Sequence record: MK931441.1
DNA length: 44,454 nt
Strand: one strand, 5' to 3'
From: Escherichia phage Snoke
The position numbers and the translations under genes are program-made. Below the pieces are notes generated by a model that was not told the origin of the DNA, did no database searches, and saw only the letters and a program-made list of their open reading frames with translations. This document shows positions 1,857 through 42,521 of this stretch, piece by piece. The stretch's first letter is position 1. Every line of letters starts with the position of its first letter.

Positions 1857-3338
1857 ATGTTAACTATGAACGGTCAGAATCAGGGTGTTAAGACAAAACA
1901 CCGGGAATGGCTGCATCACTTCGATAAATGGCAGAAGGTACGCCACGCACTGGAAGGCGACCTTATCCGTTACCTGCGTAACGTCGGGAAGAACGAGCCG
2001 GACCCGACCTACGCGGCACAGCGGCAGGAAGAATACGAGAACGGCGCTATCTGCTACAACTTCACTAAACGTACCCTGGCGGGGATGGTCGGCAGTGTCA
2101 TGCGCAAAGACCCTGAGCAGATTATTCCGCCTGAACTGGAGTACCTGCTACGTAATGCCGACGGTTCCGGTGTCGGGCTGTGGCAGCACGCGCAGGACAC
2201 GCTGATGGAAATTGACTCAGTAGGCCGTGGCGGGTTGCTGGTGGACGCGCCGGAGACAGCAGCGGCAACGGCAGCAGAGCAGAACGCAGGATTATTAAAC
2301 CCGGTCATCGCGTTCTACACTGCGGAGAACATCATCAACTGGCGACTGACCCGCATCGGTTCGGTTAACCGTGTGACAATGGTCGTGCTGCGTGAGGTGT
2401 GGGAATACTCAGAACCTGGCGCAGAGTTTGAAACAAAGTTCGGTGAACAATACCGCGTTCTCGATTTGATTGACGGGCGCTACCGCCAGCGCATTTACCG
2501 CTTCGATGCCGAAGGTGGTGCGCAGGATGAAGTAATCGAAATATTCCCGGAACTCGGCGAACAGTTACGCGGTAAAATCCCGTTTACGTTCATTGGGGCA
2601 AGCAACAACGACGCCACTATAGACGATGCGCCTTTGCTGCCGTTGGCTGAACTCAATATCGGGCATTTCCGCAACAGCGCAGACAATGAGGAGTCCAGCT
2701 TCGTTGTAGGCCAGCCCACTCTGTTCATCGCCCCGGGCGGGAATATGAGCATGGAGCAGTGGAAAGAAGCCAACCCACACGGGGTACGCATGGGGTCGCG
2801 TTCAGGCCATAACATCGGTGAGGGCGGCAATGCGTTTCTGGTTCAGGCGGGGGAGAACAACCTCGCCAAGCAGAACATGCTGGATAAAGAGAATCAGGCC
2901 CTCCAGATTGGCGCACAGCTTATTACCCCGACGCAGCAAATCACCGCTGAATCGGCCCGTCTGCAACGTGGCGCTGATACGTCTGTTATGTCGACAATCG
3001 CACGTAACGTAAGCATGGCGTACACCGATGCGTTGCGCTGGGTAGCTGCGATGCTCGGGCTTAGTGACGGTACTGAGATTGAGTTCAAGCTGAATATGGA
3101 GTTCTTCCTGCAACCGATGACCGCTCAGGACCGCGCTCAGTGGATGGCGGACATTAATGCCGGTCTGCTGCCAGCGACCGCATACTACGCCGCGTTGCGT
3201 AAAGCAGGGGTGACTGACTGGACCGACGAGGATATTCAGAACGCTATTGAGGACGCACCTCTGCCGTTAGGTGCTGTTACTCAGGTGGCAGGAGAGATTC
3301 CGCAGTCGGTGCAGCAACAAGATGTCACTCAGCAGTAA
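1857..3338 (+). CDS. portal protein (putative)
   Basis: 493-aa ORF between large terminase and head morphogenesis gene; size and position typical of portal; no motif check possible by eye. Confidence 0.65.
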   Translation: MLTMNGQNQGVKTKHREWLHHFDKWQKVRHALEGDLIRYLRNVGKNEPDPTYAAQRQEEYENGAICYNFTKRTLAGMVGSVMRKDPEQIIPPELEYLLRNADGSGVGLWQHAQDTLMEIDSVGRGGLLVDAPETAAATAAEQNAGLLNPVIAFYTAENIINWRLTRIGSVNRVTMVVLREVWEYSEPGAEFETKFGEQYRVLDLIDGRYRQRIYRFDAEGGAQDEVIEIFPELGEQLRGKIPFTFIGASNNDATIDDAPLLPLAELNIGHFRNSADNEESSFVVGQPTLFIAPGGNMSMEQWKEANPHGVRMGSRSGHNIGEGGNAFLVQAGENNLAKQNMLDKENQALQIGAQLITPTQQITAESARLQRGADTSVMSTIARNVSMAYTDALRWVAAMLGLSDGTEIEFKLNMEFFLQPMTAQDRAQWMADINAGLLPATAYYAALRKAGVTDWTDEDIQNAIEDAPLPLGAVTQVAGEIPQSVQQQDVTQQ

Positions 3339-3348
3339 GTTCACATAT

Positions 3349-3370
3349 AGCCCCGAAAGGGGCTTTCTTA
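3349..3370 (+). terminator. stem-loop / weak intrinsic terminator after portal gene
   Basis: AGCCCC-GAAA-GGGGCT hairpin followed by TTCTTA. Confidence 0.4.
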
Positions 3371-3374
3371 TAGT

Positions 3375-5267
3375 ATGCTATTAACTTTAGCGCCACAGGG
3401 TTTATCTATGAGCTTACTTACATCTCTAATCAGCCACCAGATATGGCTGCAACGCACTGCATCCGGTGAGGTGAAAGACCTCGCGCCGTTCATTAAGGAG
3501 ATGCGGGACGAAATAAAACGGCAGGTGCTGTTATTCGGTGACGACGGGCGGAGCACTGCGCGACTGAATAAACTGTTACTCGACCTTGAAGAAGCGCTAA
3601 CCGGACTTACCGGCGATTGGCAAACAAAGCTGACAGAAGACCTTATGGAACTGGCGGCGTATGAGGCCGAGTGGAATGTAAAGACACTGACCACCAACGT
3701 AGATGCGGAATTTGTTACGCCTACTGCCGAACAGGTGTGGTCCGCTGCCGAGTTTCAACCCTTATCATTAAGCGACAAGCCTGTTGATTTCACTAAGCTG
3801 ATGTCGGGATGGGGTGAAACCGAAGTAGCACGTCTCGTAACCGGCGTTAAGATGGGCTTTGTTCAGGGTAAGACAACACGGCAGATTGTTAAGAATGTTG
3901 TTGGTGCTGGTGGTTTGGCGGACATTTCAGAACGTAACGCGGCTACTGTAATCCGCACCGCGCTGTCTCATGTATCCAACGAGGCCCGTAACGAGACGTA
4001 CCGCCAGAACGACGACATCATCGAGAAGTACGAGTGGGTGTCGACGCTGGACAGCCGTACCAGTACGATTTGTAGGGCCAGAGACGGAATGACGTGGGAA
4101 ATCGGTAAGGGGCCGATGCCCCCGGCCCATCCGAATTGTTTACTTGGGGACACTGTAGTATCTACCGGTAGTCCTGTTTCTAACATTTTTAAACGGGCGT
4201 ACAAAGGCACTGTAGTCTATGTCTCTACAAAGTCCGGTCGCACCTTGTCTATCACCCCAAACCACCAGGTATTGACTACCAGTGGTTGGGTTGCTTCCGG
4301 CCTTCTCAATGTAGGTGACAAGCTCGTGTGCGCTAAGGACTCTACTCTCTCTCTCAAGCATAAGGAACACAACGTTGTAGCCAAGTTCTCCGATTTGTTT
4401 AGTGCGGCTAATGTAGCGGTCAATCCTGCGGCGGTCCGTACAAGCCCAACCTCCACCGAAGACTTCCACGGCGACGGAACCGACGGCGAAGTCGAGATTG
4501 TACTTGTCGACCGCCTTTCCTGGGATAAAGTCAAGTCCGGACTGAATAAGCAAATCATTGACAAGGAACTCCCAGTGACTGCCGGCGTTGATGACTCCCT
4601 CCCTGGCTTTGGCTCTGCGAAGCAGTTCGGCATGGTCGGCCTTTCTCCCTCGGACAGCTTCGTGCGCGGCGGCAGAGAGAGCGAGGCGCTCCTCGGGAGT
4701 AGCTTTAGCCATTCTGATAAACATAGCGTCGCTACCTCCGCGAATGGTAACGCCGTTCTCTCTGAGAACGCGTATGACTGGACTACACGAAACGCCGATA
4801 ATCTTTCCGATTTCAACTGGTCCGATGCCGTTGGCGTAGAGCTTGATGATGTTGTCAATTTGGTCTTTAGTGAAGCTGATTTTTGCGGGCATGTTTATAA
4901 CCTCGAAAATGAACAGAACTGGTATCTTGCGAATGGAATTATAGCACATAACTGTCGCTCAACAACCGCGCCTGTAATCAGTTCGGAGTTCGACTTCCTC
5001 GATAAAGGCGCAAAACGCGCGGCTAAGGGCGCGGACGGCGGTATGCAGGTAAGCGCGGACACCACCTATTACGAGTTCCTGAAACAACAACCGGCATGGT
5101 TTCAGGACCAGGCGCTTGGTTCTGTTCGCGGTAAGATTTTCCGCAACAGCGGTATATCACCAGAGGAGTTTCGCGTAATATCTGTAGATGGTTTCGGGAA
5201 TCCGCTCACGCTTAAGCAGATGGCGGAACTCGATAAACGTGTTGCTGATTATCTGAAAGGGGATTAA
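3375..5267 (+). CDS. head morphogenesis protein precursor (Mu F / SPP1 gp7-like) containing an intein
   Basis: Extein carries the minor-head-protein signature DSRTSTICRARDG...PPAHPN-C-R; 630-aa precursor = about 358-aa extein plus 272-aa intein. Confidence 0.8.
   Translation: MLLTLAPQGLSMSLLTSLISHQIWLQRTASGEVKDLAPFIKEMRDEIKRQVLLFGDDGRSTARLNKLLLDLEEALTGLTGDWQTKLTEDLMELAAYEAEWNVKTLTTNVDAEFVTPTAEQVWSAAEFQPLSLSDKPVDFTKLMSGWGETEVARLVTGVKMGFVQGKTTRQIVKNVVGAGGLADISERNAATVIRTALSHVSNEARNETYRQNDDIIEKYEWVSTLDSRTSTICRARDGMTWEIGKGPMPPAHPNCLLGDTVVSTGSPVSNIFKRAYKGTVVYVSTKSGRTLSITPNHQVLTTSGWVASGLLNVGDKLVCAKDSTLSLKHKEHNVVAKFSDLFSAANVAVNPAAVRTSPTSTEDFHGDGTDGEVEIVLVDRLSWDKVKSGLNKQIIDKELPVTAGVDDSLPGFGSAKQFGMVGLSPSDSFVRGGRESEALLGSSFSHSDKHSVATSANGNAVLSENAYDWTTRNADNLSDFNWSDAVGVELDDVVNLVFSEADFCGHVYNLENEQNWYLANGIIAHNCRSTTAPVISSEFDFLDKGAKRAAKGADGGMQVSADTTYYEFLKQQPAWFQDQALGSVRGKIFRNSGISPEEFRVISVDGFGNPLTLKQMAELDKRVADYLKGD
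4137..4952 (+). mobile_element. intein (Hint domain), 272 aa
   Basis: Begins Cys1 CLLGDTVV (block A), SITPNHQVLT (block B, TxxH), ends VYNLENEQNWYLANGIIAHN (blocks F/G, terminal HN) followed by Cys+1 at 4953; splits conserved extein motif HPN|CR. Confidence 0.8.
4140..4892 (-). CDS. HTH + Vsr/DUF559-like PD-(D/E)XK endonuclease, candidate homing endonuclease encoded antisense to the intein
   Basis: Minus-strand ORF coextensive with the intein; ATG at 4892 preceded by GAGG with 8-nt spacer; N-terminal HTH (ISFTKDQIDNIIKLYANGIGPVEIGKIIGVSCSPVIRVLRENG) and nuclease signature SHWEFLVNDLL...YNLDFAVGSVAVEVFGGGW...RRRIDRYISRTKQIGELGYNVVF; ORF track gives upstream ATG at 4949 without SD. Confidence 0.6.
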   Translation of the reverse strand: MPAKISFTKDQIDNIIKLYANGIGPVEIGKIIGVSCSPVIRVLRENGVTIRGGSDAMFIRMAKATPEERLALSAAAHEAVRGRKADHAELLRRAKAREGVINAGSHWEFLVNDLLIQSGLDFIPGKAVDKYNLDFAVGSVAVEVFGGGWACTDRRRIDRYISRTKQIGELGYNVVFLMLERESRVLSAHELVTYIEKAGSNPTTGSQYLVVWGDRQGATGLCRDIDYSAFVRPFKNVRNRTTGRYYSVPK

Positions 5268-5728
5268 TGATGGGCTTTTTTAAAGTAACTGATGTGCCGT
5301 CGCGTCGCGTAGTCCAGTACGCCCGTGTATCCGGTTCTGGTGAGAACGTGGTGTCTATTGGGGACGAAAGTGTACTAGGTACACCGGTAGACGAGATGCC
5401 GTATGCGGACAAGACCGGTATCGCACTCTCTGCTGCTGGTATGCTTTATGAGATTCCGTATCGGGCAGATGCTGGTGATGTGTATTTCTCTGTGCAACCG
5501 AAAGACACCGAGCTGGTCGACGGTAGCGCCACCATCACCGTCGAAGTTAAGGCGGGTAAAGCGCCGTATGTACTGACCTGGTACAAAGACGGGAAGGAAG
5601 TGGTGAACGTCCCGGAAGAGGCTCTGTCTCTGACTGTTAATGCGGCTGGTGAATACTTCGTTAAAGTTACTGATGCCGATGGTGCGGAGGCCGTAAGCAA
5701 AGCGGCGAAGGTCTCTAAACCAGGATGA
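5267..5728 (+). CDS. Ig-like domain protein (virion-associated, function unknown)
   Basis: C-terminal beta-rich repeat with YVLTWYKDGKEV motif typical of bacterial Ig-like domains; start overlaps stop of morphogenesis gene. Confidence 0.5.
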   Translation: MMGFFKVTDVPSRRVVQYARVSGSGENVVSIGDESVLGTPVDEMPYADKTGIALSAAGMLYEIPYRADAGDVYFSVQPKDTELVDGSATITVEVKAGKAPYVLTWYKDGKEVVNVPEEALSLTVNAAGEYFVKVTDADGAEAVSKAAKVSKPG

Positions 5729-5730
5729 TA

Positions 5731-5760
5731 AAAGGCCCCATAATGGGGCCTTAGTTTTAT
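5731..5760. terminator. bidirectional intrinsic terminator
   Basis: AGGCCCCA-TAA-TGGGGCCT hairpin flanked by A-run upstream and T-run downstream, between convergent genes. Confidence 0.7.
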
Positions 5761-6278
5761 TTAAATCGCGCGGGCATTAACACCATAAAGGCCGTGTTTG
5801 AAAATTGTATTTTGCATCCTCTGGTTTGGTCCTGGAAATCGAAACGAGCAATTTCATTTTTGTATGCCTTAGAAATCTTGTACGCGTCTGCCAAATAGCG
5901 CAGAGTGAACCCTATACTACCGACAACACCCGGTGTGATGTGCGCCACGCGTCTCCAGTCAGGAAAGTTTCCTTCTACAACATCTACCGGAAGTGTACAT
6001 ATAAGCGCACGATTATCGTCATAGAAAGATACACTGCCGTTGTCGTGGTCTACCTCTGCGTAGTTAAATTTAGAAGGCTCTCTCCCTTTAATGTCGACGA
6101 GAACCCCTTTCTCAACGTTCGTCTTCACATTGTCGCAGAACAATCTATGACCGTCCGTAGACACTATCAATCCTTCAGGGTCTATGTAAAAAGCGTTCAA
6201 ATAGTAGCGAACATCATTTTTAGCCCTGCATATTTTCGCCCCTACATACGCAGGGAAAGTAATTACTGTAGTAACCAT
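5757..6278 (-). CDS. truncated DnaN-like protein (beta sliding clamp homolog, domain II plus partial domain III)
   Basis: 173 aa; DVRYYLNAF...STDGHRLFC, EGNFPDWRRV, IGFTLRYLADA and C-terminal FMVLMPARFK match, in order and spacing, E. coli DnaN motifs DVRYYLNG...ATDGHRLAVC, DGRFPDYRRV, IGFNVSYVLDVLNA and YVVMPMRL; strong SD AGGAGG 6 nt before ATG. Confidence 0.6.
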   Translation of the reverse strand: MVTTVITFPAYVGAKICRAKNDVRYYLNAFYIDPEGLIVSTDGHRLFCDNVKTNVEKGVLVDIKGREPSKFNYAEVDHDNGSVSFYDDNRALICTLPVDVVEGNFPDWRRVAHITPGVVGSIGFTLRYLADAYKISKAYKNEIARFDFQDQTRGCKIQFSNTAFMVLMPARFK

Positions 6279-6305
6279 TTTATGCCTCCTGTTTAAGTTA
6301 ACTGA

Positions 6306-6334
6306 ATAGTACCCTATTATATTGGTGCGCGCAA
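6306..6334 (-). promoter_or_regulatory. sigma70-type promoter (class II: TTGCGC-17-TACTAT) for DnaN-like gene
   Basis: Minus-strand TTGCGC, 17-bp spacer gcaccaatataataggg, TACTAT; spacer conserved with promoters at 15400, 37978, 38911. Confidence 0.55.
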
Positions 6335-6400
6335 ACTATTTGTTTACGTATTCCAGATATTCCACTCAATTGTAAACGTTGGAATAAACTATTCGAATAG

Positions 6401-6429
6401 TTGACTTTTCACTGAAAATATGCTAAGCT
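6401..6429 (+). promoter_or_regulatory. sigma70-type extended -10 promoter (class III: TTGACT-17-TGnTAAGCT), copy A
   Basis: TTGACT, 17-bp spacer ending TGC, TAAGCT; promoter plus about 45 nt of downstream leader nearly identical to 37681-37757. Confidence 0.55.
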
Positions 6430-6609
6430 CCACCTGAGCTTGTGAAGTATGAACAAGCGACCGCGGCGCGGGCAGGTAACGGAGCTGGACGTAAGTCCTG
6501 AGTGTAGTTACGCTGACGCGTTCGGAAGGGCCATACTCTATTGCTTGTGCAAAAAGTAACTGGTTTACTGAGATTACGCCGTTTCTATGTTTAAATGATA
6601 AGGACTAGC

Positions 6610-6637
6610 GCCCCGCTTTAAGGCGGGGCTTTACTTA
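6610..6637 (+). terminator. hairpin plus T-tract (attenuator/terminator-like) just upstream of spanin genes
   Basis: GCCCCGC-TTTAAG-GCGGGGC followed by TTTACTTA. Confidence 0.4.
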
Positions 6638-6653
6638 TCGAGAAAGGGGAAAC

Positions 6654-7046
6654 ATGAATCTTAAAGCAACTGTCGTAGCCAGAGCATGTTTCGTCGTCCT
6701 AGCCCTAGCCTACGCACACGGCATCTATCAATACCGCAGCGGCTGGGGTGAAGGCCGTGCTAATCTCGTTTCGCAGCAACAGCAGAAAGCACAGGCTGAG
6801 CTGACGAAGAAAACACAACGGCAGCAGCAGGATGAATCAAAGGCCGCCGCCGCTGACAACGAAGGCAAGACGAAATCAGAGGTGCTTACCCGTGAAGTCG
6901 TTAAGTACATTAAAACGCCTGGCCGCAGCGTGTGCACTTTCGACGATGCTCGCGTCCTGCTCAAGTCCCACGCCGTTGCCAACGCCAATTCCATCCCCGG
7001 ATACGACGATGATGCAGCCGCCGTGCAAACTGGCACCGCCAAGTAG
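6654..7046 (+). CDS. Rz-like i-spanin (putative)
   Basis: N-terminal transmembrane segment (VVARACFVVLALAYAHGIY), Q/K/E-rich helical region, C-terminal Cys; overlapped in +1 frame by lipoprotein ORF. Confidence 0.5.
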   Translation: MNLKATVVARACFVVLALAYAHGIYQYRSGWGEGRANLVSQQQQKAQAELTKKTQRQQQDESKAAAADNEGKTKSEVLTREVVKYIKTPGRSVCTFDDARVLLKSHAVANANSIPGYDDDAAAVQTGTAK

Positions 7047-7155
7047 CGACGCTGACGAGGATTTAGCTATCGACGTTCAGAACGCCGAATGTGTACGGCA
7101 ACTGAGACTGAAAGTGTTCATGTTGCAGGATTACGTGAGGAATATTCTGGAATAG
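6832..7155 (+). CDS. Rz1-like o-spanin lipoprotein (putative; start uncertain)
   Basis: +1 frame overlapping C-terminal part of Rz-like ORF; lipobox LASC after hydrophobic stretch LAAACALSTM; proline-rich mature part with Cys. Confidence 0.5.
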   Translation: MNQRPPPLTTKARRNQRCLPVKSLSTLKRLAAACALSTMLASCSSPTPLPTPIPSPDTTMMQPPCKLAPPSSDADEDLAIDVQNAECVRQLRLKVFMLQDYVRNILE

Positions 7156-7237
7156 TTGCCTTGTATGTTGGAATAATTTATTCTTGACATGTAAATCCGG
7201 GAGGCCCGGATTCCAACGTCCAGGGGACATACTGACT

Positions 7238-7939
7238 ATGAATCGTTTTTTACACTATCCGTTCCAGGAAGAAGCTGGGGCAGAAGATAAATCCGGCGGT
7301 GGCGACGCTCCAAAAATGTTCACCGCTGAAGAAGTTCAGGCGATGATTGAGAAAGAAGTTGCCGGACTTAAGGCCAATCAGGAAGCATTGCTGGCGGAGA
7401 AGAAAGAAGCCGCCCGTAAAGCAAAAGAGGCCGAAGAGGAACGTCAGCGCGCGCACCAGGAGGCGCTAAAAGCCGCCGGTAAGATGGACGAGTTCGAAAA
7501 GACGATTCGTAGCCAGTATGACCCGGTGTTAGCCGAGAAAGATGGTCGCATCACCAAAATGGCTGAGCGCATCCTCGGCAGCGAACGTAAAGCGGTGTTA
7601 GGCTCTTTCGCAGGTGATTTCATCACACCGGAAGCAGTAGACATTCTTGCTCCGTTCGTTAAGACTGAGTTTGAAGGCGATGACGTGGTTACTAAGTTTG
7701 TTGGTGCAGACGGCAACGTAATCACAACTGACCCGGAACAGTTCCGCAAATACCTGCGTGAACACAAAGCGTTTTCGCATTTGATTAAAGCAAATGCAGC
7801 TTCCGGCGGCGGGGCTTCCGGCGGCAAAGGCGGCGGGGCCGCACCAGCGTTTAAAGACATGAACGAAGCGGAGCGTTTAGCTCTGTACAAATCGAACCCT
7901 GCCGAATTTGAACGGCAACTTAAAGCCCTGAGGAAATAA
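7238..7939 (+). CDS. scaffolding protein (putative)
   Basis: Charged, helix-prone, A/E/K-rich protein immediately upstream of major capsid gene; start taken at first ATG (ORF track extends to 7184). Confidence 0.5.
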   Translation: MNRFLHYPFQEEAGAEDKSGGGDAPKMFTAEEVQAMIEKEVAGLKANQEALLAEKKEAARKAKEAEEERQRAHQEALKAAGKMDEFEKTIRSQYDPVLAEKDGRITKMAERILGSERKAVLGSFAGDFITPEAVDILAPFVKTEFEGDDVVTKFVGADGNVITTDPEQFRKYLREHKAFSHLIKANAASGGGASGGKGGGAAPAFKDMNEAERLALYKSNPAEFERQLKALRK

Positions 7940-7941
7940 TA

Positions 7942-8991
7942 ATGGCAATTACCACTATCGGCGATATCGTAACTGGCAACGTACCCGTCCTTCTGTCCTA
8001 TATGACTGAGGACCCGGTAGAGAAAACTGCGTTCTTCCAGTCCGGCATCCTGGCCCCGACCCCGTACGCTGCTGAGATTGCTCGCGGTCCGTCCAACGTC
8101 GCTAATATTCCTTTCTGGAAAGCGATTGATACCTCTATCGAGCCGAACTACTCGAACGATGTATATCAGGACATCGCCACTCCACGCAACGTACAAACCG
8201 GTGAGATGATGGCACGCGTCGCTTATCTGAACGAAGGCTTCGGACAGGCAGACCTGACTGTTGAACTGACCAGCCAGAACCCGCTGCAATCTGTTGCCGC
8301 TCGTCTGGATAACTTCTGGCAGCGTCAGGCACAGCGCCGTCTGATTGCTACCGCTCTCGGCCTGTATAACGACAACGTAACGGCAACCGATGCTTACCAC
8401 GAGCAGAACGACATGGTTATCGACGTGTCTGCGACTCTGGGCTTCGATTCTGGCGCGTTCATTGACGCTACCCAAACCATGGGTGACGCGCTGATGGGTA
8501 ATGGTGGTGAAGTGCTGGGGGCAATCGCGATGCATAGCTTCGTGTATGCGCAGGCGCGTAAGCAACAGCTTATCGACTTCATCCGCGATGCCGACAACAA
8601 CACCATGTTCGCCACCTACCAGGGCTACCGCGTGATTGTTGACGACAGCATGACCGTAGTTGGTACTGACTCTAGCCGTAAGTTCATCTCCATCATCTTC
8701 GGCAACGGTGCTATCGGTTATGGTGAAGGCAACCCGTCCAACCCGCTGGAATATGAACGCGAAGCGTCTCGCGGTAACGGTGGTGGCGTAGAAACCCTGT
8801 GGACTCGTAAGACCTGGCTGCTGCACCCACTGGGCTACAGCTTCACCAGCGCGGTAATCACCGGCAACGGCACCGAGACTACCCCACGCTCCGCTTCCTG
8901 GCAGGACCTGGCAAACGCCTCCAACTGGAACCGTGTTGTTGACCGCAAGCATGTACCGATTGCCTTCCTGGTAACTGGTGTCGGGGCTTAA
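7942..8991 (+). CDS. major capsid protein
   Basis: 349-aa ORF after scaffold, good SD GAGGA, followed by strong hairpin; position and size typical of major capsid protein. Confidence 0.7.
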   Translation: MAITTIGDIVTGNVPVLLSYMTEDPVEKTAFFQSGILAPTPYAAEIARGPSNVANIPFWKAIDTSIEPNYSNDVYQDIATPRNVQTGEMMARVAYLNEGFGQADLTVELTSQNPLQSVAARLDNFWQRQAQRRLIATALGLYNDNVTATDAYHEQNDMVIDVSATLGFDSGAFIDATQTMGDALMGNGGEVLGAIAMHSFVYAQARKQQLIDFIRDADNNTMFATYQGYRVIVDDSMTVVGTDSSRKFISIIFGNGAIGYGEGNPSNPLEYEREASRGNGGGVETLWTRKTWLLHPLGYSFTSAVITGNGTETTPRSASWQDLANASNWNRVVDRKHVPIAFLVTGVGA

Positions 8992-26027: not shown

Positions 26028-26213
26028 TCATTTCTTACCTTCGCTTTTCTTGAAACTGCGCTTTATGTCCGGCAGCGTGTAGCATCGTGACTTTTCGTAT
26101 TTACCGTCCGAGCTTACCAAAACAAAGCTGTTGCCGTCTTTCGATATGTACTCGATGGTGAAAGTATTGAATGAGTGTATGCTGTATATTTCATCGTCAA
26201 CATTAAGTTTCAT
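26028..26213 (-). CDS. hypothetical protein
   Basis: ORF from track at end of minus-strand operon. Confidence 0.3.
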   Translation of the reverse strand: MKLNVDDEIYSIHSFNTFTIEYISKDGNSFVLVSSDGKYEKSRCYTLPDIKRSFKKSEGKK

Positions 26214-27634
26214 TTCTTACCTCGTCTCTTCATGTAATTAAGCAACTCTTCCTGGACCGATTTCTTCTCGTCTGTACGCGCGGCAACAACCTCATCCAGC
26301 GTGTCTTTAGCAACGATGTGGTAGAGAAATACCGGTCGTTCGTGGCCCGCCTGTTTTTGTCGGACTGGACCTATACGCTCAACAACCTGCAAATAGTGCT
26401 CAAGGTTCCACCCTTGCGAAATAAACGCCAGATGATGGCCACCGTCCTGTAAATTGAGACCATGCCCGGCTGACGCAGGGTGCACGCATAGGATTTCGAT
26501 TTCACCACGGTTCCACGCTTCCATCTGCTTATTGCCATTCGCGCCTTTGGCGAACGCCTGTGCTTGCGGGAATCGCTTAAGGATGCGCTCCAGTTCGTGC
26601 TTGAACTGATAGGCTACCAGTAGCGTCGCACCCTGTAACTCCTCAACAATGGACTCAAGCGCATCCAGTTTCGTGTCGTGCACTTTCTCCCAGTCTTTGG
26701 TTGCTTCGCCGTCTGGACCAGACACATACACGGCACCGGAGGCGATCTGCAAACACTTTGACGTCTTTGCCGCGGCGTTAGCCGCTTCAACTTCTCCGCT
26801 CTCCAGTTCCGCGAATAGCTTCTCCTCCATATCTATGTACGCCTGACGCGCTTTCTTCGGCAGGTCAATTTCCACCGGCACGATAATCGGCGCTTCACAA
26901 CCGAACCACTCGGCGGCGTCAATCGTCAGGCTAATGTCTTTCATCTTCTGGTGAATTTCATTATCCGCACCAGGGCGTGCATGATACTCACGCGCCATAG
27001 CCGATTTGCCTTTCTGTACCGAGTTAAACCATCGGTCGGTGAATGCCGTGTATGAAGAACCGAGGCGCTCGCCCGCGTCGATAAACCAGTTCTGACCCCA
27101 CAAGTCTTTGAGGCCGTTCGGTGACGGCGTTCCCGTCAGGTTTATAAAACGCTTGACCTTACCGAACGCAACCTTGCTAAGCGCCTTTGCCCGCTTGCTG
27201 CCACCTGAACGACTGCGGAATGATTTCAGTTTCGTGCTCTCATCGGCAACGATAACCGTAAAAGGCCAGTCGTCTTTGCCGTAATAGTCAATAAGCCACT
27301 CGATAACTTCGTAGTTTGTACAGACCACATTAGCGTCTGACTCCAGTGCCGCGATGCGGCGCTTCTCTGAACCTGTCGCATCTACGACGCGCAGACACGG
27401 GAATCGCCATTTCTCTTGTTCTGATGGCCATGTGCCGGACGCAACACGCAGCGGGGCGAGGATTAACACGCGGTCGTCGTCCGTAAGCTGCCCGTTGCGG
27501 AACAGTCGGTTAAGCACCCACATCGTTGCGGAACTTTTGCCGGCGCCCATCGAAGCCCAAATATTACAGCGAGGATGCTGTAGCATGAACGAAGTCATGA
27601 GCTTCTGGTACTCGCGCCTTTGAAACTTACTCAT
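26210..27634 (-). CDS. superfamily 2 helicase (SNF2-like)
   Basis: Walker A GAGKSS, motif II VIVADEST, helicase C-terminal region with QGWNL...GPVRQKQ. Confidence 0.8.
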   Translation of the reverse strand: MSKFQRREYQKLMTSFMLQHPRCNIWASMGAGKSSATMWVLNRLFRNGQLTDDDRVLILAPLRVASGTWPSEQEKWRFPCLRVVDATGSEKRRIAALESDANVVCTNYEVIEWLIDYYGKDDWPFTVIVADESTKLKSFRSRSGGSKRAKALSKVAFGKVKRFINLTGTPSPNGLKDLWGQNWFIDAGERLGSSYTAFTDRWFNSVQKGKSAMAREYHARPGADNEIHQKMKDISLTIDAAEWFGCEAPIIVPVEIDLPKKARQAYIDMEEKLFAELESGEVEAANAAAKTSKCLQIASGAVYVSGPDGEATKDWEKVHDTKLDALESIVEELQGATLLVAYQFKHELERILKRFPQAQAFAKGANGNKQMEAWNRGEIEILCVHPASAGHGLNLQDGGHHLAFISQGWNLEHYLQVVERIGPVRQKQAGHERPVFLYHIVAKDTLDEVVAARTDEKKSVQEELLNYMKRRGKK

Positions 27635-34434: not shown

Positions 34435-34731
34435 CTATTCCAAATTCTTAATCGTGTGTTGCACGTTCAGGTACTGAATCCACGCAAAAAGCCATACGCT
34501 TAACGGAAAACTAACCACAGCTGCCGTTCTGAAAACAATGTGGACGGTACACGCTACAATTTCCTTTACCGTCATATCCAGAACGTGGCGCAATTCTGCA
34601 ACTTCCTCTAACGCTAGCTTGCAAGCAGGCCACCATTGGTGTGCTACACAAGAAACACATGTCAGGTACGACGGGCGGTATCCAGCCCTCACTGCTTTAA
34701 ACGGGTTATCTATAAAATCGTAGATATTCAT
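34435..34731 (-). CDS. hypothetical protein
   Basis: ORF from track; Cys-rich N-terminus, hydrophobic C-terminus. Confidence 0.3.
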   Translation of the reverse strand: MNIYDFIDNPFKAVRAGYRPSYLTCVSCVAHQWWPACKLALEEVAELRHVLDMTVKEIVACTVHIVFRTAAVVSFPLSVWLFAWIQYLNVQHTIKNLE

Positions 34732-36989
34732 TCCAAATCCTCTTCTGTCACTATCAGCATCTCATTCGGCTCGTATATTGTCTTCGGAATCTTGTTATCG
34801 TTTATGCCCCACGGCAGCCGATATTGCTTAGGTATAGGCCTGTTGTTATTATCCAGCCCAGAGACGATAACCCCAGCCTCGTGCATCTCCTCCAGTTTCT
34901 TTCGAAGGTCGTTATTAGCGTTAATCGGTACACCATAACTATCTTCTTTCGCCGCTTTGACGATAGCGGACATAGAAAACCCTCGCTTGTCGTCGCCCTG
35001 CTCCTGCAATTTACCTAATGCGTAAATAACCGTAGCTTCTTTGGTACCCAGTTTCTCGAACTGGCCTACCTTTTCTTTAACGGCTTCCTTCTGTTCGTCG
35101 GTCATACCTTCTACTTTCTTCACGAAGACAGAGAAGGCGTTAAAGTTAACAAAGACATCGATGTGCGGATTTCCCGCGTCAAAATCTCGCACATCGTCAC
35201 TGCTATACCCTTCCGGAAGCACCATGAAGTTGTGAGTTGGTTCTTTCTTTTCCGGTGGCTCCGCTATCTGAATCTTCTGTATTACGAATCCTCTGGCTTT
35301 CTGCCGTTCTCCGTTTCGGTTCTTTATGTGATACAGGTTTATCTCTAAGTTATTGTCGTTGTCTGGTTTATGCAGGAACATCCCGTTATCGATGGAGTTG
35401 TGAAAGTCGCTCCCACCCTTCGGCATCATGCCGTTTTCAGACGGTACGGTTTCGTCGATGTTTTTAGTCGGGTGCACCATAGCGCCTACCGCAGCGTTAA
35501 GCGTCGACGCTATTTCGTTAAGCGCCTGCGCCGCTTCTTTCATCGACCTGTTGTCGTTCTCGTCGAAGCCTGGTATGCAAGTTTGTAGGGTATCAAACGT
35601 AACCTTTACAATTTTCTCTTCACCGGCGACACGGCGCATCATTCTTACCGCCTGGCGGCGCCATGCTTCATCAAGTAAATTACACCCATCGGCAACACAA
35701 TCGATAATGTGCAAGCGGTCCAGGCTATCCCCGAGGGCAATCTGCAAAGACTTTTTATGTCGCCCGAACGACTGTGCGCCTTCACCGGCGAAAATGAACG
35801 CATGTCCTTCTGCAACCTCTGCCCCACCGAACGCATATCTTTTTTCGGCGGCAATAGCGGCGTCAATCGCCATACTAAATGTCGACTTACCAGTGTGGGA
35901 CTTTGCGCAAATGTAAAACGATTCGTTAGTCTGCATAAGGCCGTCTACGACGGAGTAAGCAGGTTCTTTTTCAACTTCCGGCTCGTCTTCGAGGTCTTCC
36001 AGAGTGCAAGTTACAGGCTCTTCATTCTCTGTGCGGTGTAATTCCTCAATCTCTTCGTCCGGTAAATCAGGCAGAGCCGCACGAATGCTGTTAATACTGA
36101 TAGGTTGCTTGTCTACGTTAAGCTCGTCCGGAAGACCGCACATACGCAGAGCCAAATGTTGTCGGCGGTTAAGCTCGGTGCAAGCGCCGTTGTTTGTGTG
36201 CTGGCACACGAAGCGCACTTCTTTACCATCAAGCATAATGCTGGTAGAGCCTTTGCCGGTGTGCAGGTGTTCGTTAGGGCAAGGCACTTCGTACCCGCGA
36301 CCGGAAGATAAAGCGTCAAGGCCAAGCTCCGCTTCGCAGAAATGCGCTATATCCGCGTTAAGCCCATGCTCATCGGCAGCAAGGGTCTTAGCTTCACGTT
36401 TACGCAACCCCATTTCTTCGGCTTTCTTGATGTACCGCTCGGCACGGATAACACGCCCTTCTGTAACCGTTATCTTCGACTCTTTATGCGGCAGGTAGAT
36501 AAGGCGGTTGCCATCTTCTGTGCAGTGGTCACGCAGCGCTTCGTCTATCTCTAACTCTGCACAAATGGCGCGTTGTACCATCCACGCATCGTTAGAGTTA
36601 AACGGCGTGCGTGCAGGTACAAGAACGCGAAAGGCGTAATCCCCGTTTTTACACGCGTGCTGATGCGACGCCGTTGTGTGCAGAATGTTGAAGAACGGCG
36701 CGTTCTTGAATTTGCGCGTCAGGTCGCGGTACTGAGCGCGGTTGAGATGGTCAAAGTCGAACTTAACCACACTGTCTTCCAGAATCGCGTTCTTACGGCG
36801 ACCGCCAACCGGCGCAATAGCTTTCTGCTTAATCTTGGCCGCGTCGTACTCTTCCTTAGTCCATGACGGGTCTACGGACAGACGCTTCGATGTATCGCAG
36901 ACATACTCTACAAACTGCTCCAGTGGCATTTCACGGGCTACCGGGTTTTTATCGAATGTGTTACGCAGCGTTGCAAAAACAATATTCAT
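34728..36989 (-). CDS. DNA primase / helicase (putative)
   Basis: Central P-loop AKSHTGKST; N-terminal region with Cys/His cluster CPNEHLHTGKGSTS...CQHTNNGAC; position in replication module. Confidence 0.6.
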   Translation of the reverse strand: MNIVFATLRNTFDKNPVAREMPLEQFVEYVCDTSKRLSVDPSWTKEEYDAAKIKQKAIAPVGGRRKNAILEDSVVKFDFDHLNRAQYRDLTRKFKNAPFFNILHTTASHQHACKNGDYAFRVLVPARTPFNSNDAWMVQRAICAELEIDEALRDHCTEDGNRLIYLPHKESKITVTEGRVIRAERYIKKAEEMGLRKREAKTLAADEHGLNADIAHFCEAELGLDALSSGRGYEVPCPNEHLHTGKGSTSIMLDGKEVRFVCQHTNNGACTELNRRQHLALRMCGLPDELNVDKQPISINSIRAALPDLPDEEIEELHRTENEEPVTCTLEDLEDEPEVEKEPAYSVVDGLMQTNESFYICAKSHTGKSTFSMAIDAAIAAEKRYAFGGAEVAEGHAFIFAGEGAQSFGRHKKSLQIALGDSLDRLHIIDCVADGCNLLDEAWRRQAVRMMRRVAGEEKIVKVTFDTLQTCIPGFDENDNRSMKEAAQALNEIASTLNAAVGAMVHPTKNIDETVPSENGMMPKGGSDFHNSIDNGMFLHKPDNDNNLEINLYHIKNRNGERQKARGFVIQKIQIAEPPEKKEPTHNFMVLPEGYSSDDVRDFDAGNPHIDVFVNFNAFSVFVKKVEGMTDEQKEAVKEKVGQFEKLGTKEATVIYALGKLQEQGDDKRGFSMSAIVKAAKEDSYGVPINANNDLRKKLEEMHEAGVIVSGLDNNNRPIPKQYRLPWGINDNKIPKTIYEPNEMLIVTEEDLE

Positions 36990-40480: not shown

Positions 40481-40674
40481 TGGTGCAGAGATATGAGGTA
40501 AAAGCGTGGGGCCTGCCAGAGCCTGAGATGGCTGAGTACGCATACGGCGATTATGTAGAGTATGACGCTTATCTGAAACTTGAAGCAAAGTTACGTGAAT
40601 TCGCCGAACAGGTAATGTACGCACCTTGTTCGAAAGTTACAGAAGAAATGGCCCGCGAGATTCTCGGAATATGA
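40480..40674 (+). CDS. hypothetical protein
   Basis: ORF from track; N-terminus MVQRY as in upstream gene. Confidence 0.3.
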   Translation: MVQRYEVKAWGLPEPEMAEYAYGDYVEYDAYLKLEAKLREFAEQVMYAPCSKVTEEMAREILGI

Positions 40675-40964
40675 GCCTCGCAACTGACATCCTGAAACGA
40701 AGCGGCCTTGCGCCGCTGTCGCCGAGAGCAAACACTCAGATATACAAGCGCCGCCGTAATACGCTGTACCCAGAGATACAAGAACGGCGTAAAGCTATCC
40801 GCGCCTGTGGATTCCAGAACGGGAAAGCCGTGAATCTCGGTGAGTTTAAAACACAAGAACGCGCCGCAATCGCTAATCGACTATTTAATTACTGGAAATC
40901 GCTGGGGTACGATGATATTCCGACGAAACCCCAGAGACGACAATACATCTGGAGGCACAAATGA
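40671..40964 (+). CDS. hypothetical basic protein
   Basis: ORF from track, coupled. Confidence 0.3.
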   Translation: MSLATDILKRSGLAPLSPRANTQIYKRRRNTLYPEIQERRKAIRACGFQNGKAVNLGEFKTQERAAIANRLFNYWKSLGYDDIPTKPQRRQYIWRHK

Positions 40965-41398
40965 CTACTATCGCGTTTGACGGAAAGACGATGGCCTGTG
41001 ACACCCGAGTAACCGGAGACCACATCTACAACACAGATACCAAGATATATGAGAACGAGTTTGTTGTTATCGGTGTAGCAGGCAATGCTGAGGCTGGTAT
41101 CCTTTTAGTGAAGGACGATAGTATTTTAGTACCTAAGCACTACGATTTTGATTTCTCTGCTTTGGTGTGGGTTAAAGACATCGAAACGTTGTGCAAAGTA
41201 GAGTTCTACAAATCCTGGGATTGTGCACTAAGTTCGGTTATCCCTGTTGCAGATGGTTTTGCCGCCGTTGGTTCCGGTGCACCTTATGCACTGGCGGCTA
41301 TGTATTTAGGTAATACGGCAACACGTGCAATTACTATAGCAGAGCAATTCGACCCTAACACCGGAGGCAATATTATTACCAAACAACTATTAGGATAA
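40961..41398 (+). CDS. HslV-like Ntn-hydrolase peptidase (proteasome beta-type)
   Basis: N-terminal MTTIAF (Thr nucleophile after Met removal), VVIGVAGNAEAG and AAVGSGAPYALAAM match HslV blocks TTIVSV, VIAGFAGGTADAF and IAIGSGGPYAQAAA; SD GGAGG. Confidence 0.65.
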   Translation: MTTIAFDGKTMACDTRVTGDHIYNTDTKIYENEFVVIGVAGNAEAGILLVKDDSILVPKHYDFDFSALVWVKDIETLCKVEFYKSWDCALSSVIPVADGFAAVGSGAPYALAAMYLGNTATRAITIAEQFDPNTGGNIITKQLLG

Positions 41399-41457
41399 TT
41401 CCTAACCGTGCTATCCTCCAGTTACTGCATACTTAATACGCACCTGGAGGATTCATC

Positions 41458-41766
41458 TTGGATAAATTTACTGAAACAGTGCCGGGGTGGCTTCTCGCCG
41501 CCGCACTGGTTGGTGGATTGGTCGGACTAAGACAACATAAAAAGTCTATATCCGGTCCAGTCGACGGACTGGTATTTCTTCTCACCGGCTTCGCGTGTGC
41601 CATTTTCGGTGCACCTCTTGCCGCTCAATGGTTCGGTATTACCGGTGAGCGCGAGATAGCTGGCCTCGGATTCATCATTGCCATTCTCTGGATGCCTATC
41701 TATTCCCGCCTTTCTGACATCGTATCGGGTGGCGATATTTCCCGCCCGGGAGGACCTCATGACTGA
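41458..41766 (+). CDS. holin (putative)
   Basis: 102-aa protein with hydrophobic segments, TTG start with SD GGAGG, immediately upstream of endolysin. Confidence 0.55.
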   Translation: MDKFTETVPGWLLAAALVGGLVGLRQHKKSISGPVDGLVFLLTGFACAIFGAPLAAQWFGITGEREIAGLGFIIAILWMPIYSRLSDIVSGGDISRPGGPHD

Positions 41767-42040
41767 GCTATTCTGGTTTGTCGTAATGCTGGCAATGGGC
41801 GCTTCGTCCCTGTTCAACGTGTATAATGAGCACGTGGACGACGGGTTATTCGGGCGTGTGCTCTATATCCTGACTGCGATTGTCTGCGCCGCCGGATGTA
41901 TCCACCTGTTACAGGGCAGCGTGTCACCAACGTTGCCGGAAACACTAATCACCCTGGTAGCGCTGCGACAGATTCGTCAATCGTGGCTGCATTACCAGTC
42001 GAAAGGAGGACATAAGCGTGTCTCGAAACATTTCAGATAA
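41759..42040 (+). CDS. second holin-like membrane protein (holin/antiholin)
   Basis: 94 aa from internal ATG with SD GGAGG; two hydrophobic segments. Confidence 0.45.
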   Translation: MTELFWFVVMLAMGASSLFNVYNEHVDDGLFGRVLYILTAIVCAAGCIHLLQGSVSPTLPETLITLVALRQIRQSWLHYQSKGGHKRVSKHFR

Positions 42041-42521
42041 TGGATTGCAGTTCAAGAAAGCGTGGGAGAAGTTTCGTGGAACTGCGTACAAAGCCACAAA
42101 GAACGAGAAATACTGGACTATAGGCTGGGGCCATACCGGACCAGATGTGTACGAAGGGCAGAAGATTACCGAGGGTCAGGGGTTGCTGTTACTTAACCGT
42201 GATATGCAGTGGGCGGTGAAAGCAGTAGACGAGGTGGCGCATCCATCGCTTACCCAGGCCCAGTTTGATGCCGTTGTTGACCTGGTGTTTAACGCCGGAA
42301 CTGGTGTTATCGCAGCGACTACCGGAACCGGTAAGGCGCTACGGCAGGGGGACATCGCAGCCTTACGGCACAAGATGAGCCAGTTCATTAACCAGCGCAA
42401 CCCTAAGACCGGTAAACTTGAACCTGTTCTGGGCCTGCGCCGTCGTGTAGCGGGTCGCCTGGCGCTGTTCGACGGTAAACCGTGGCAGGAGGCGGAGGAT
42501 ATCGGGAGGGCTGTTAAGTGA
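42018..42521 (+). CDS. endolysin, GH24 lysozyme-like
   Basis: N-terminal E...YKATKNEKYWTIGWGHTG pattern resembling T4 lysozyme catalytic region; GTG start with SD GGAGG. Confidence 0.75.
   Translation: MSRNISDNGLQFKKAWEKFRGTAYKATKNEKYWTIGWGHTGPDVYEGQKITEGQGLLLLNRDMQWAVKAVDEVAHPSLTQAQFDAVVDLVFNAGTGVIAATTGTGKALRQGDIAALRHKMSQFINQRNPKTGKLEPVLGLRRRVAGRLALFDGKPWQEAEDIGRAVK

Follow-up and report, generated by a model that had tools for sequence, protein, structure and literature searches.

A predicted proteasome-like threonine hydrolase of the PPH family, encoded by an accessory gene of Escherichia phage Snoke and probably working without an ATPase

The genome sequence of Escherichia phage Snoke (sequence record MK931441.1), whose 44,454 nucleotides were analysed as a whole and are referred to as the window, contains at positions 40961-41398 of the plus strand an ATG-initiated gene of 145 codons plus stop. 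According to sequence profiles and a predicted structure, the deduced protein is a true proteasome-like N-terminal nucleophile (Ntn) hydrolase with a predicted threonine nucleophile, and it is not an orthologue of HslV. The gene belongs to the PPH family, to which it was assigned by features matching the published description of that family (PMC8665760), and it is a non-essential, accessory gene. The reading that we favour, and that we regard as moderately probable, is that of a catalytically competent PPH peptidase that is independent of an ATPase and encoded by a dispensable accessory gene. The translation runs MTTIAFDGKTMACDTRVTGDH...VVIGVAGNAEAG...AAVGSGAPYALAAM...LLG up to the stop codon, and the fuller segments are MTTIAFDGKTMACDTRV...VVIGVAGNAEAG...FAAVGSGAPYALAAM...ITKQLLG. 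An original prediction, made from the nucleotide sequence alone, had described a 145-residue protein with the start MTTIAF at this location, and the list of open reading frames (ORFs) and the translation confirmed this part of it.

The PPH family was named in 2021 by Fuchs et al. and comprises proteins of about 140 residues from Caudovirales and prophages that fall into group I together with HslV and the beta-proteobacterial proteasome homologue BPH; they are without helix H2 and the C-terminal elements S12/H5, and no AAA+ protein co-occurs with them (PMC8665760). In phage Sciku, a protein (QEG06935.1) with 100% identity to that of Snoke carries the annotation 'protease; nucleophile aminohydrolase superfamily IPR029055'. 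Public records thus already contain the gene and its annotation as well as the family, and the gene has to be regarded as already known; the original prediction was made unaware of the PPH naming. The window adds no new family, and its contribution consists of near-isogenic natural phages with and without the PPH gene. New here are the deletion of the gene in phage Schulenburg, the ratio of nonsynonymous to synonymous substitution rates (dN/dS), the set of 64 viral loci free of an ATPase partner, and the occurrence of family members in hosts without HslU. Proteases of the proteasome type normally belong to cells and depend on an ATPase as gatekeeper; a viral version of 145 residues, with the active site whole and the regulator-binding face shed, raises the questions of how much of a proteasome subunit is needed at the least and what use a virus makes of it.

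The assignment to the proteasome superfamily was provided by profile-based searches. The window protein matched PHROG 1040 ('peptidase HslV family') with an E-value of 1.2e-35 and 124.5 bits, residues 1-141 being aligned with positions 14-154 of the 277 profile positions, while the C-terminal half of this profile represents extensions that the window protein is without. A profile search yielded 4,031 cluster representatives (50% identity) at E<=1e-3, nearly all of which are 135-155 residues long and match from residue 1. When a profile of 114 members was compared with solved structures, HslV (1.5e-11), the proteasome subunit beta5 (2.3e-10) and BPH (4.2e-10) were retrieved, and 55 of 95 diverse members individually reached the Pfam Proteasome family at E<=0.01. 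The PPH protein is equally distant from HslV, the 20S beta subunits and BPH. With the window protein as the only query, the NCBIfam HslV equivalogs TIGR03692 (15.3 bits versus a cutoff of 157.75) and NF003964 (15.1 bits versus 137) aligned with nothing but the GSG block, and a phmmer search of the PDB likewise returned this block only (E ~0.07). In the family search suggested in the original prediction, the single-sequence searches of Pfam, NCBIfam and PDB remained below threshold and would by themselves have counted as the lack of a proteasome/HslV hit that was to refute it; this outcome was overturned by PHROG 1040, the family profile and the structure methods, which were positive. The label of an HslV-like Ntn peptidase was upheld in part: the membership in the threonine hydrolases of the proteasome/HslV superfamily stands, whereas the status of an HslV orthologue has to be given up in view of the TIGR03692 score and the missing H2 and most of H1. 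As a separate observation, the PPH domain is followed in some viral relatives by about 120 further residues at the C-terminus, examples being the BFVD entries A0A1W6DWU9 (263 residues, 62% identity) and A0A5B9NBU4, A0A2I7R6C7 and A0A6G5YGZ5 (275-279 residues).

The predicted active site was evaluated by means of 144 divergent representatives, each taken from a different 50%-identity cluster, and by comparison with the HslV protein of Escherichia coli, the reference sequence of which was verified against 5ji3/1e94 and the register of which was set by hhalign (probability 97.4%). Residue Thr2 (codon 40964-40966; this and all following codons on the plus strand) corresponds to HslV Thr1 in the hhalign alignment and is the predicted N-terminal nucleophile after removal of Met1; the position is occupied by Thr in 139 and by Ser in 3 of the representatives, and 115 of them start with MTT. 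Methionine aminopeptidase has a specificity by which Met is removed before Thr. Asp14 (41000-41002) is equivalent to Asp17 of HslV and the proteasome and is an Asp in 143/144 sequences, and Lys28 (41042-41044) is equivalent to HslV Lys33, is present in all 144 and is also invariant in two family alignments. The oxyanion-hole glycine position (HslV Gly45, proteasome Gly47) is taken by Gly41 (41081-41083; Gly in 142/144) within a GvAG block that aligns with GFAGG of HslV. The Gly104-Ser105-Gly106 block (41270-41278), with the position of HslV Ser124 and proteasome Ser129, aligns with IGSGG of HslV, both glycines being invariant (144/144 each) and the serine being found in 135 sequences, with Thr in another 6. 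The segment Asp131-Pro-Asn-Thr134 (41351-41362) would occupy the position of proteasome Asp166/Ser169; Asp131 is present in 137 and Thr or Ser at position 134 in 125 of the 144 representatives. By hhalign, Asp131 is paired with the Cys159 residue of HslV from E. coli, and it probably takes the place of Asp166 of the proteasome. Altogether, T2, D14, K28, G41, S105 and D131 are all present and 93-100% conserved, and the conservation of the Thr/Lys pair, on which the original prediction had staked itself, is clearly confirmed by the counts at Thr2 and Lys28.

An AlphaFold (AF2) model of the monomer was calculated from an alignment of 95 diverse sequences, with a predicted local distance difference test (pLDDT) score of 93.6 and a predicted template modelling (pTM) score of 0.89. 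This alignment replaced one of 13 close homologues, from which an unusable model with a pLDDT of 41.6 had been obtained. Foldseek supported the proteasome-like Ntn fold, so that the fold that had been expected from the sequence was recovered in a confident model. In the copies of the structure collections searched, Foldseek returned no structure with more than 30% identity to the model, which indicates that these copies contain no solved PPH structure. The beta-sandwich core and the helices H3 (residues 107-115) and H4 (120-130) are retained in the model. The region of H1 and H2, by comparison, is shrunken: residues 42-64 (41084-41152, plus strand) form a helix of six residues (45-50) followed by a loop, in place of the two long apical helices of HslV, and the assignment of secondary structure by DSSP places this helix between the strands 35-41 and 65-71, with the next helix starting at residue 107. 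The hhalign and hmmsearch alignments agree in that the H1/H2 segment is about 19 residues shorter than that of HslV. The absence of H2 corresponds to what is described for the PPH and RPC proteins (PMC8665760). At the C-terminus, a strand (138-142) follows straight after H4 and the S12/H5 elements are missing, and the hhalign match to HslV stops at HslV residue 165 of 176. In HslV and the 20S beta subunits, H1 and H2 form the face that meets HslU and the alpha ring, respectively, and the pocket for the HslU tail in the HslUV crystal structures is likewise formed by H1/H2 of HslV.

The gene content of the window and of related loci was analysed with respect to an ATPase partner. No unfoldase of the HslU or Clp type was found among the window proteins, the P-loop proteins of which are limited to an SNF2 helicase (26210-27634), an AAA_25 RepA-like primase-helicase (34728-36989) and the terminase, as had been anticipated in the original prediction for an HslU-like AAA+ ATPase. 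The neighbours of PPH genes were then clustered over 64 divergent viral loci. The recurrent ones are the large and small terminase subunits, portals, the Mu-F protein, a DNA helicase, a Cas4-like exonuclease and a holin; the other identifiable neighbours with a Walker A motif are terminases or primase-helicases, along with one protein without a Pfam match. No recurrent unfoldase or ATPase partner was detected near PPH in these 64 loci. The protein gp15 of Microbacterium phage WaterT is a PPH member (hhalign 99.6%, E=7.8e-24), and a scan of bacterial genome contigs with a degenerate DNA motif encoding A-[IV]-G-S-G-x-x-[YF]-A-x-A-A-M resulted in 61 sites, 60 of which belong to PPH members and one to a real HslV (Vulcaniibacterium). 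About half of the bacterial members are located in Pseudomonas and share the N-terminus MTTIAYKDGVIAYDSR, and some of the others are found on contigs of Cyanobacteria, Gaiellales and Saccharibacteria. For Actinobacteria and Cyanobacteria, no HslV is recorded (PMC8665760, Table 1). The loss of the H1/H2 docking face argues against a canonical docking of HslU, the occurrence in these lineages points in the same direction, and the PPH protein would accordingly work without the host HslU.

The favoured reading can be formulated as a sequence of predicted steps. By the precedent of HslV, the host methionine aminopeptidase would remove Met1 and thereby expose Thr2 as both nucleophile and general base. 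Asp14 and Lys28 would complete the triad and Gly41 would give the oxyanion hole, with Ser105 of the GSG block, Asp131 and Thr134 bracing the active site; the residue set is conserved, and the activity is predicted from it. The resulting ATP-independent peptidase would act on peptides, on unfolded proteins or on one specific target, and the gene is retained by selection where it is present and is lost without killing the phage.

Several observations weigh against this reading. The literature searched contains no measured activity, oligomeric state or substrate for any PPH. The window protein alone reaches 11.9 bits with Pfam Proteasome (PF00227), below the gathering threshold of 22.4 bits, so that its membership in the superfamily rests on profiles and the predicted structure. 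The independence from HslU is a property that we infer from the structure of a monomer model. Moreover, E. coli, the host of the phage, has HslU, and the evidence on hosts without HslU stems from contigs of metagenome-assembled genomes or from the phylum-level table of PMC8665760. The gene is probably expressed together with the late and lysis genes, as deduced only from the packing of genes on the same strand. Finally, 17 of the 42 divergent loci with good flanks have a terminase, portal or head gene no more than 2.5 kb away from PPH, which makes a virion-linked role possible in some phages.

The dispensability of the gene became apparent from the comparison with a close relative. The window represents a near-complete genome of the genus Kagunavirus (Guernseyvirinae), and Escherichia phage Schulenburg matches its bases 1-25000 with 98.8% identity. 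In Schulenburg, the PPH gene has been removed by a precise natural deletion (Schulenburg 41052-41128 versus window 40961-41398), which has spared only a few codons at the end of the gene together with the stop (TTATTAAGATAA). There, the stop codon of the upstream gene is followed by 'ACCGTTATTAAGATAA', that is, by the last few PPH codons, and then by the same intergenic sequence and the holin gene; the upstream gene ends with TAA in Schulenburg versus the TGA overlapping the PPH start codon in the window. A clean deletion in a phage with a structural half of such identity argues against an essential role in maturation or lysis. According to rough counts, about 116 E. coli records are of the Kaguna type and roughly 34 of them carry PPH, and for Salmonella the numbers are 282 of about 372. 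The holin was unsuitable as a tblastn query for the denominator of these counts, since its family also occurs in other E. coli phage genera. Where the gene is retained, all copies are intact and under purifying selection, with a median dN/dS of 0.14 (range 0-0.26, 106 pairs).

On a larger scale, PPH relatives were detected in 348 phage records and as 336 relatives in IMG/VR, and they are spread over siphoviruses, T7-like and P22-like podoviruses and jumbo phages. The genomic settings vary. In SPN3US, WaterT and a Vibrio phage the gene is located among small early or accessory genes, and in one locus it follows a primase-polymerase gene and precedes an integrase gene. In many uncultured phages it is embedded in the packaging and head block, with small and large terminase subunits on either side (TerS-PPH-TerL) or between the large subunit and a P22-type portal (TerL-PPH-portal), and in a T7-like locus the order is scaffold, M15 peptidase, PPH and capsid.

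This distribution bears on the question of what the enzyme acts upon. A protease for counter-defence or host takeover, which would cut one or a few particular proteins of the host, such as an immune effector or a ubiquitin-like conjugate, either at a late stage of infection or upon transfer into the next cell, would account for the patchy presence among near-identical phages, the spread over unrelated phage types, the location among small accessory genes and the strong purifying selection where the gene is retained. It is nevertheless rather unlikely, as PADLOC gave no match (PADLOC covers defence proteins and not counter-defence proteins), no report was found in the literature searched, and no recurrent neighbour in the 64 divergent loci points to a target. 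Such a role is a statement on the target and is compatible with an ATPase-independent peptidase, not exclusive of it. A bolder version, which we consider unlikely, assumes that PPH does not serve bulk degradation and is either a sequence-specific protease that stands alone and needs no ATPase or a connectase-like transpeptidase; it would be made late or carried into the next cell and would cut one host protein. If this applied, the protein cut would be, for instance, an immune effector or a ubiquitin-like conjugate, PPH would be the first proteasome-derived enzyme of viral counter-defence, and the phages with the gene (Sciku and the window phage) would for that reason differ in host range from Schulenburg with its deletion.

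The original prediction had considered that the protein may recruit the host HslU. In this case, an HslV-like ring of PPH subunits would dock on host HslU and form a chimeric ATP-dependent protease, or would titrate HslU away from HslV. The host E. coli does possess HslUV, the N-terminus Met-Thr-Thr-Ile is identical to that of E. coli HslV, and, as the phage encodes no such ATPase, any dependence of the protein on ATP would have to be met by the host. These points are outweighed by the reduction of the apical H1/H2 region to a helix of six residues, by the HslV scores below cutoff, by members in a phage of Actinobacteria and in genomes of Cyanobacteria and Actinobacteria, for which HslV and HslU are unrecorded, and by Asp131, which follows the proteasome pattern and not Cys159 of E. 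coli HslV. The recruitment of HslU was therefore not borne out, and we consider it improbable.

The protein may also not be degradative at all, and could instead be a monomer that, like connectase, carries out transpeptidation or ligation at specific sequences, or an amidase with a non-protein amide as its substrate. Among the characterised proteasome homologs, connectase, a monomeric ligase, is the sole one that is also without the first helix pair (PMC8665760); PPH shares with it the absence of H2 and of most of H1, and the enzymes in the clan of Ntn hydrolases act on many different amides (PMC8665760). The two-helix insertion between S3 and S4 that is the signature of connectase is, however, missing from the PPH model, and the full proteasome-type residue set is retained, including Asp131 and Thr134. 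A non-degradative enzyme accordingly appears very doubtful.

A role in morphogenesis would make the protein a protease that matures proheads or virions, or else a component packaged into the virion, in place of a missing head protease. Virion maturation had likewise been raised in the original prediction, on the grounds that the head module shows no conventional prohead protease. The latter observation was borne out by the gene content of the module (block 1857-8991), which consists of portal, Mu-F/SPP1 gp7-like protein, scaffold and SPP1-like capsid protein; no prohead protease was found in it and no other head protease in the window. Additional support comes from divergent loci, in 23 of 64 of which (17 of the 42 that are fully flanked) a gene for terminase, portal or Mu-F protein lies at most 2.5 kb from PPH, and from arrangements such as TerS-PPH-TerL, TerL-PPH-portal and scaffold-PPH-capsid. 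SPP1-type scaffold-based head assembly is not known to use a protease. Since the window has a head module of this type, since Schulenburg is a viable isolate from which the gene is precisely deleted, since roughly two thirds of the E. coli Kaguna-type records are without PPH, and since some 33 kb of the linear map separate the gene from that of the capsid protein and PPH is not near head genes in most loci, the maturation role was not upheld and is regarded as highly improbable. As an observation on the head module itself, the Mu-F/SPP1-gp7-like gene (3375-5267, plus strand) is an ORF of 630 residues that contains an intein in frame (Pfam Intein_splicing, residues 263-526). The intein junctions read ...PAHPN|CLLGDTVV... 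and ...GIIAHN|CRSTT, with Cys at the start of the intein, His-Asn at its end and Cys at position +1. In the same head region of Schulenburg, separate ORFs are located at 3375-4451 and 4522-5145 and are annotated as morphogenesis protein and HNH endonuclease.

The immediate neighbourhood of the PPH gene is densely packed. The ATG start overlaps the TGA stop (caaATGAct) of an upstream gene of 97 codons (40671-40964, plus strand), the product of which matches phrog_9632 over its full length; the longest ORF at this location starts with TTG at 40626 and comprises 112 residues, and the annotated homologue corresponds to 40671-40964. This gene is kept in Schulenburg, where PPH is deleted, and is therefore not an obligate partner of PPH. 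Immediately 3' of PPH, the lysis cassette (41458-42521, plus strand) encodes two holins (41458-41766, phrog_2359; 41786-42040, phrog_2508) and an endolysin (42018-42521, phrog_7), and these PHROG matches verified the location directly upstream of a holin/endolysin cassette that had been predicted. The first holin gene has a TTG start, which is likewise annotated in relatives, and the gene order PPH-holin-holin-endolysin is also present in Sciku and in Jerseyvirus KE06. Between the PPH stop codon and the TTG of the holin, an intergenic hairpin (AUCCUCCAG ... CUGGAGGAU; 41413-41452, plus strand) was predicted with a minimum free energy of -18.4 kcal/mol (z=-3.16 versus shuffled sequences). The Shine-Dalgarno sequence of the holin (GGAGG) is buried in its 3' arm, and the hairpin sequence is kept in Sciku and Schulenburg. 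The hairpin may serve as a translational brake on holin synthesis, and it is part of the neighbouring context and not of the enzyme. Scans for promoters and terminators around the PPH gene yielded numbers at chance level (9 versus 7.5 and 4 versus 4.4 expected).

A role in lysis timing, by which PPH would process or degrade a holin, an antiholin or a host factor, is suggested by the synteny across Kagunavirus and Jerseyvirus, by a holin within 1.5 kb in four divergent loci and by the location on the strand of the cassette with a gap of 59 nucleotides between the PPH stop and the first holin, but it is scarcely credible, as Schulenburg has lost PPH and retains the whole lysis cassette with the hairpin, 60 of the 64 divergent members are not beside lysis genes, and holins, being membrane proteins, would offer no obvious cytoplasmic substrate for a proteasome-type enzyme.

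A comparison with known systems places the ATPase-independent PPH peptidase that we favour among its relatives. The closest agreement is that with the PPH family itself (PMC8665760), as deduced from the described features: the protein has 145 versus about 140 residues, starts with Met-Thr without a propeptide and occurs in tailed phages and presumably in prophages, it shows the Thr/Asp/Lys triad along with the glycine, it has lost H2 and S12/H5, and it has no AAA+ partner; a difference was not found by this comparison of described features. JSS1_004 of phage JSS1 was considered as a functional lead and was rejected, since it is a T7 gp0.7-like kinase and the hslV gene mentioned is that of the host. 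Phage prohead proteases are needed for maturation of the capsid and have their genes in the portal-scaffold-capsid block, whereas the PPH gene is missing in the viable Schulenburg and is located beside the lysis genes and not in the head block.

HslV (ClpQ), the peptidase component of the ATP-dependent HslUV protease of bacteria and a dodecamer made up of two stacked hexameric rings, shares with the window protein the MTTI N-terminus, the equivalents of Thr1, Asp17, Lys33 and Ser124 and the lack of a propeptide beyond Met. The window protein is, however, about 30 residues shorter, H2 is missing and H1 is cut to six residues, the scores are about 15 bits versus cutoffs of 137-158, and Asp is found instead of Cys159 of E. 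coli HslV; the gene has no adjacent hslU, and the family is found in lineages without HslUV. The 20S beta subunits (PF00227, MEROPS T1) have the full catalytic constellation in common with it, including an Asp at the Asp166 position, whereas the window protein is about 60 residues shorter and is without propeptide, alpha-ring partner, H2 and H5. Connectase (PDB 6zw0, 8jtu), another proteasome homolog, is likewise devoid of the first helix pair and independent of an ATPase (PMC8665760), but it is archaeal, its match is much weaker than those of HslV, the beta subunits and BPH, and its helical two-helix S3/S4 insertion, which is mobile and covers the active site, is missing from the PPH model. 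BPH (PDB 5ovs/5ovt/5ovu) differs in its length of about 185-200 residues, in the presence of both H1 and H2 and of a long acidic pore loop (PMC8665760), and in being cellular and not phage-borne. Since BPH likewise has no known ATPase partner (PMC8665760), it provides the best functional analogy for a proteasome homolog that is independent of an unfoldase.

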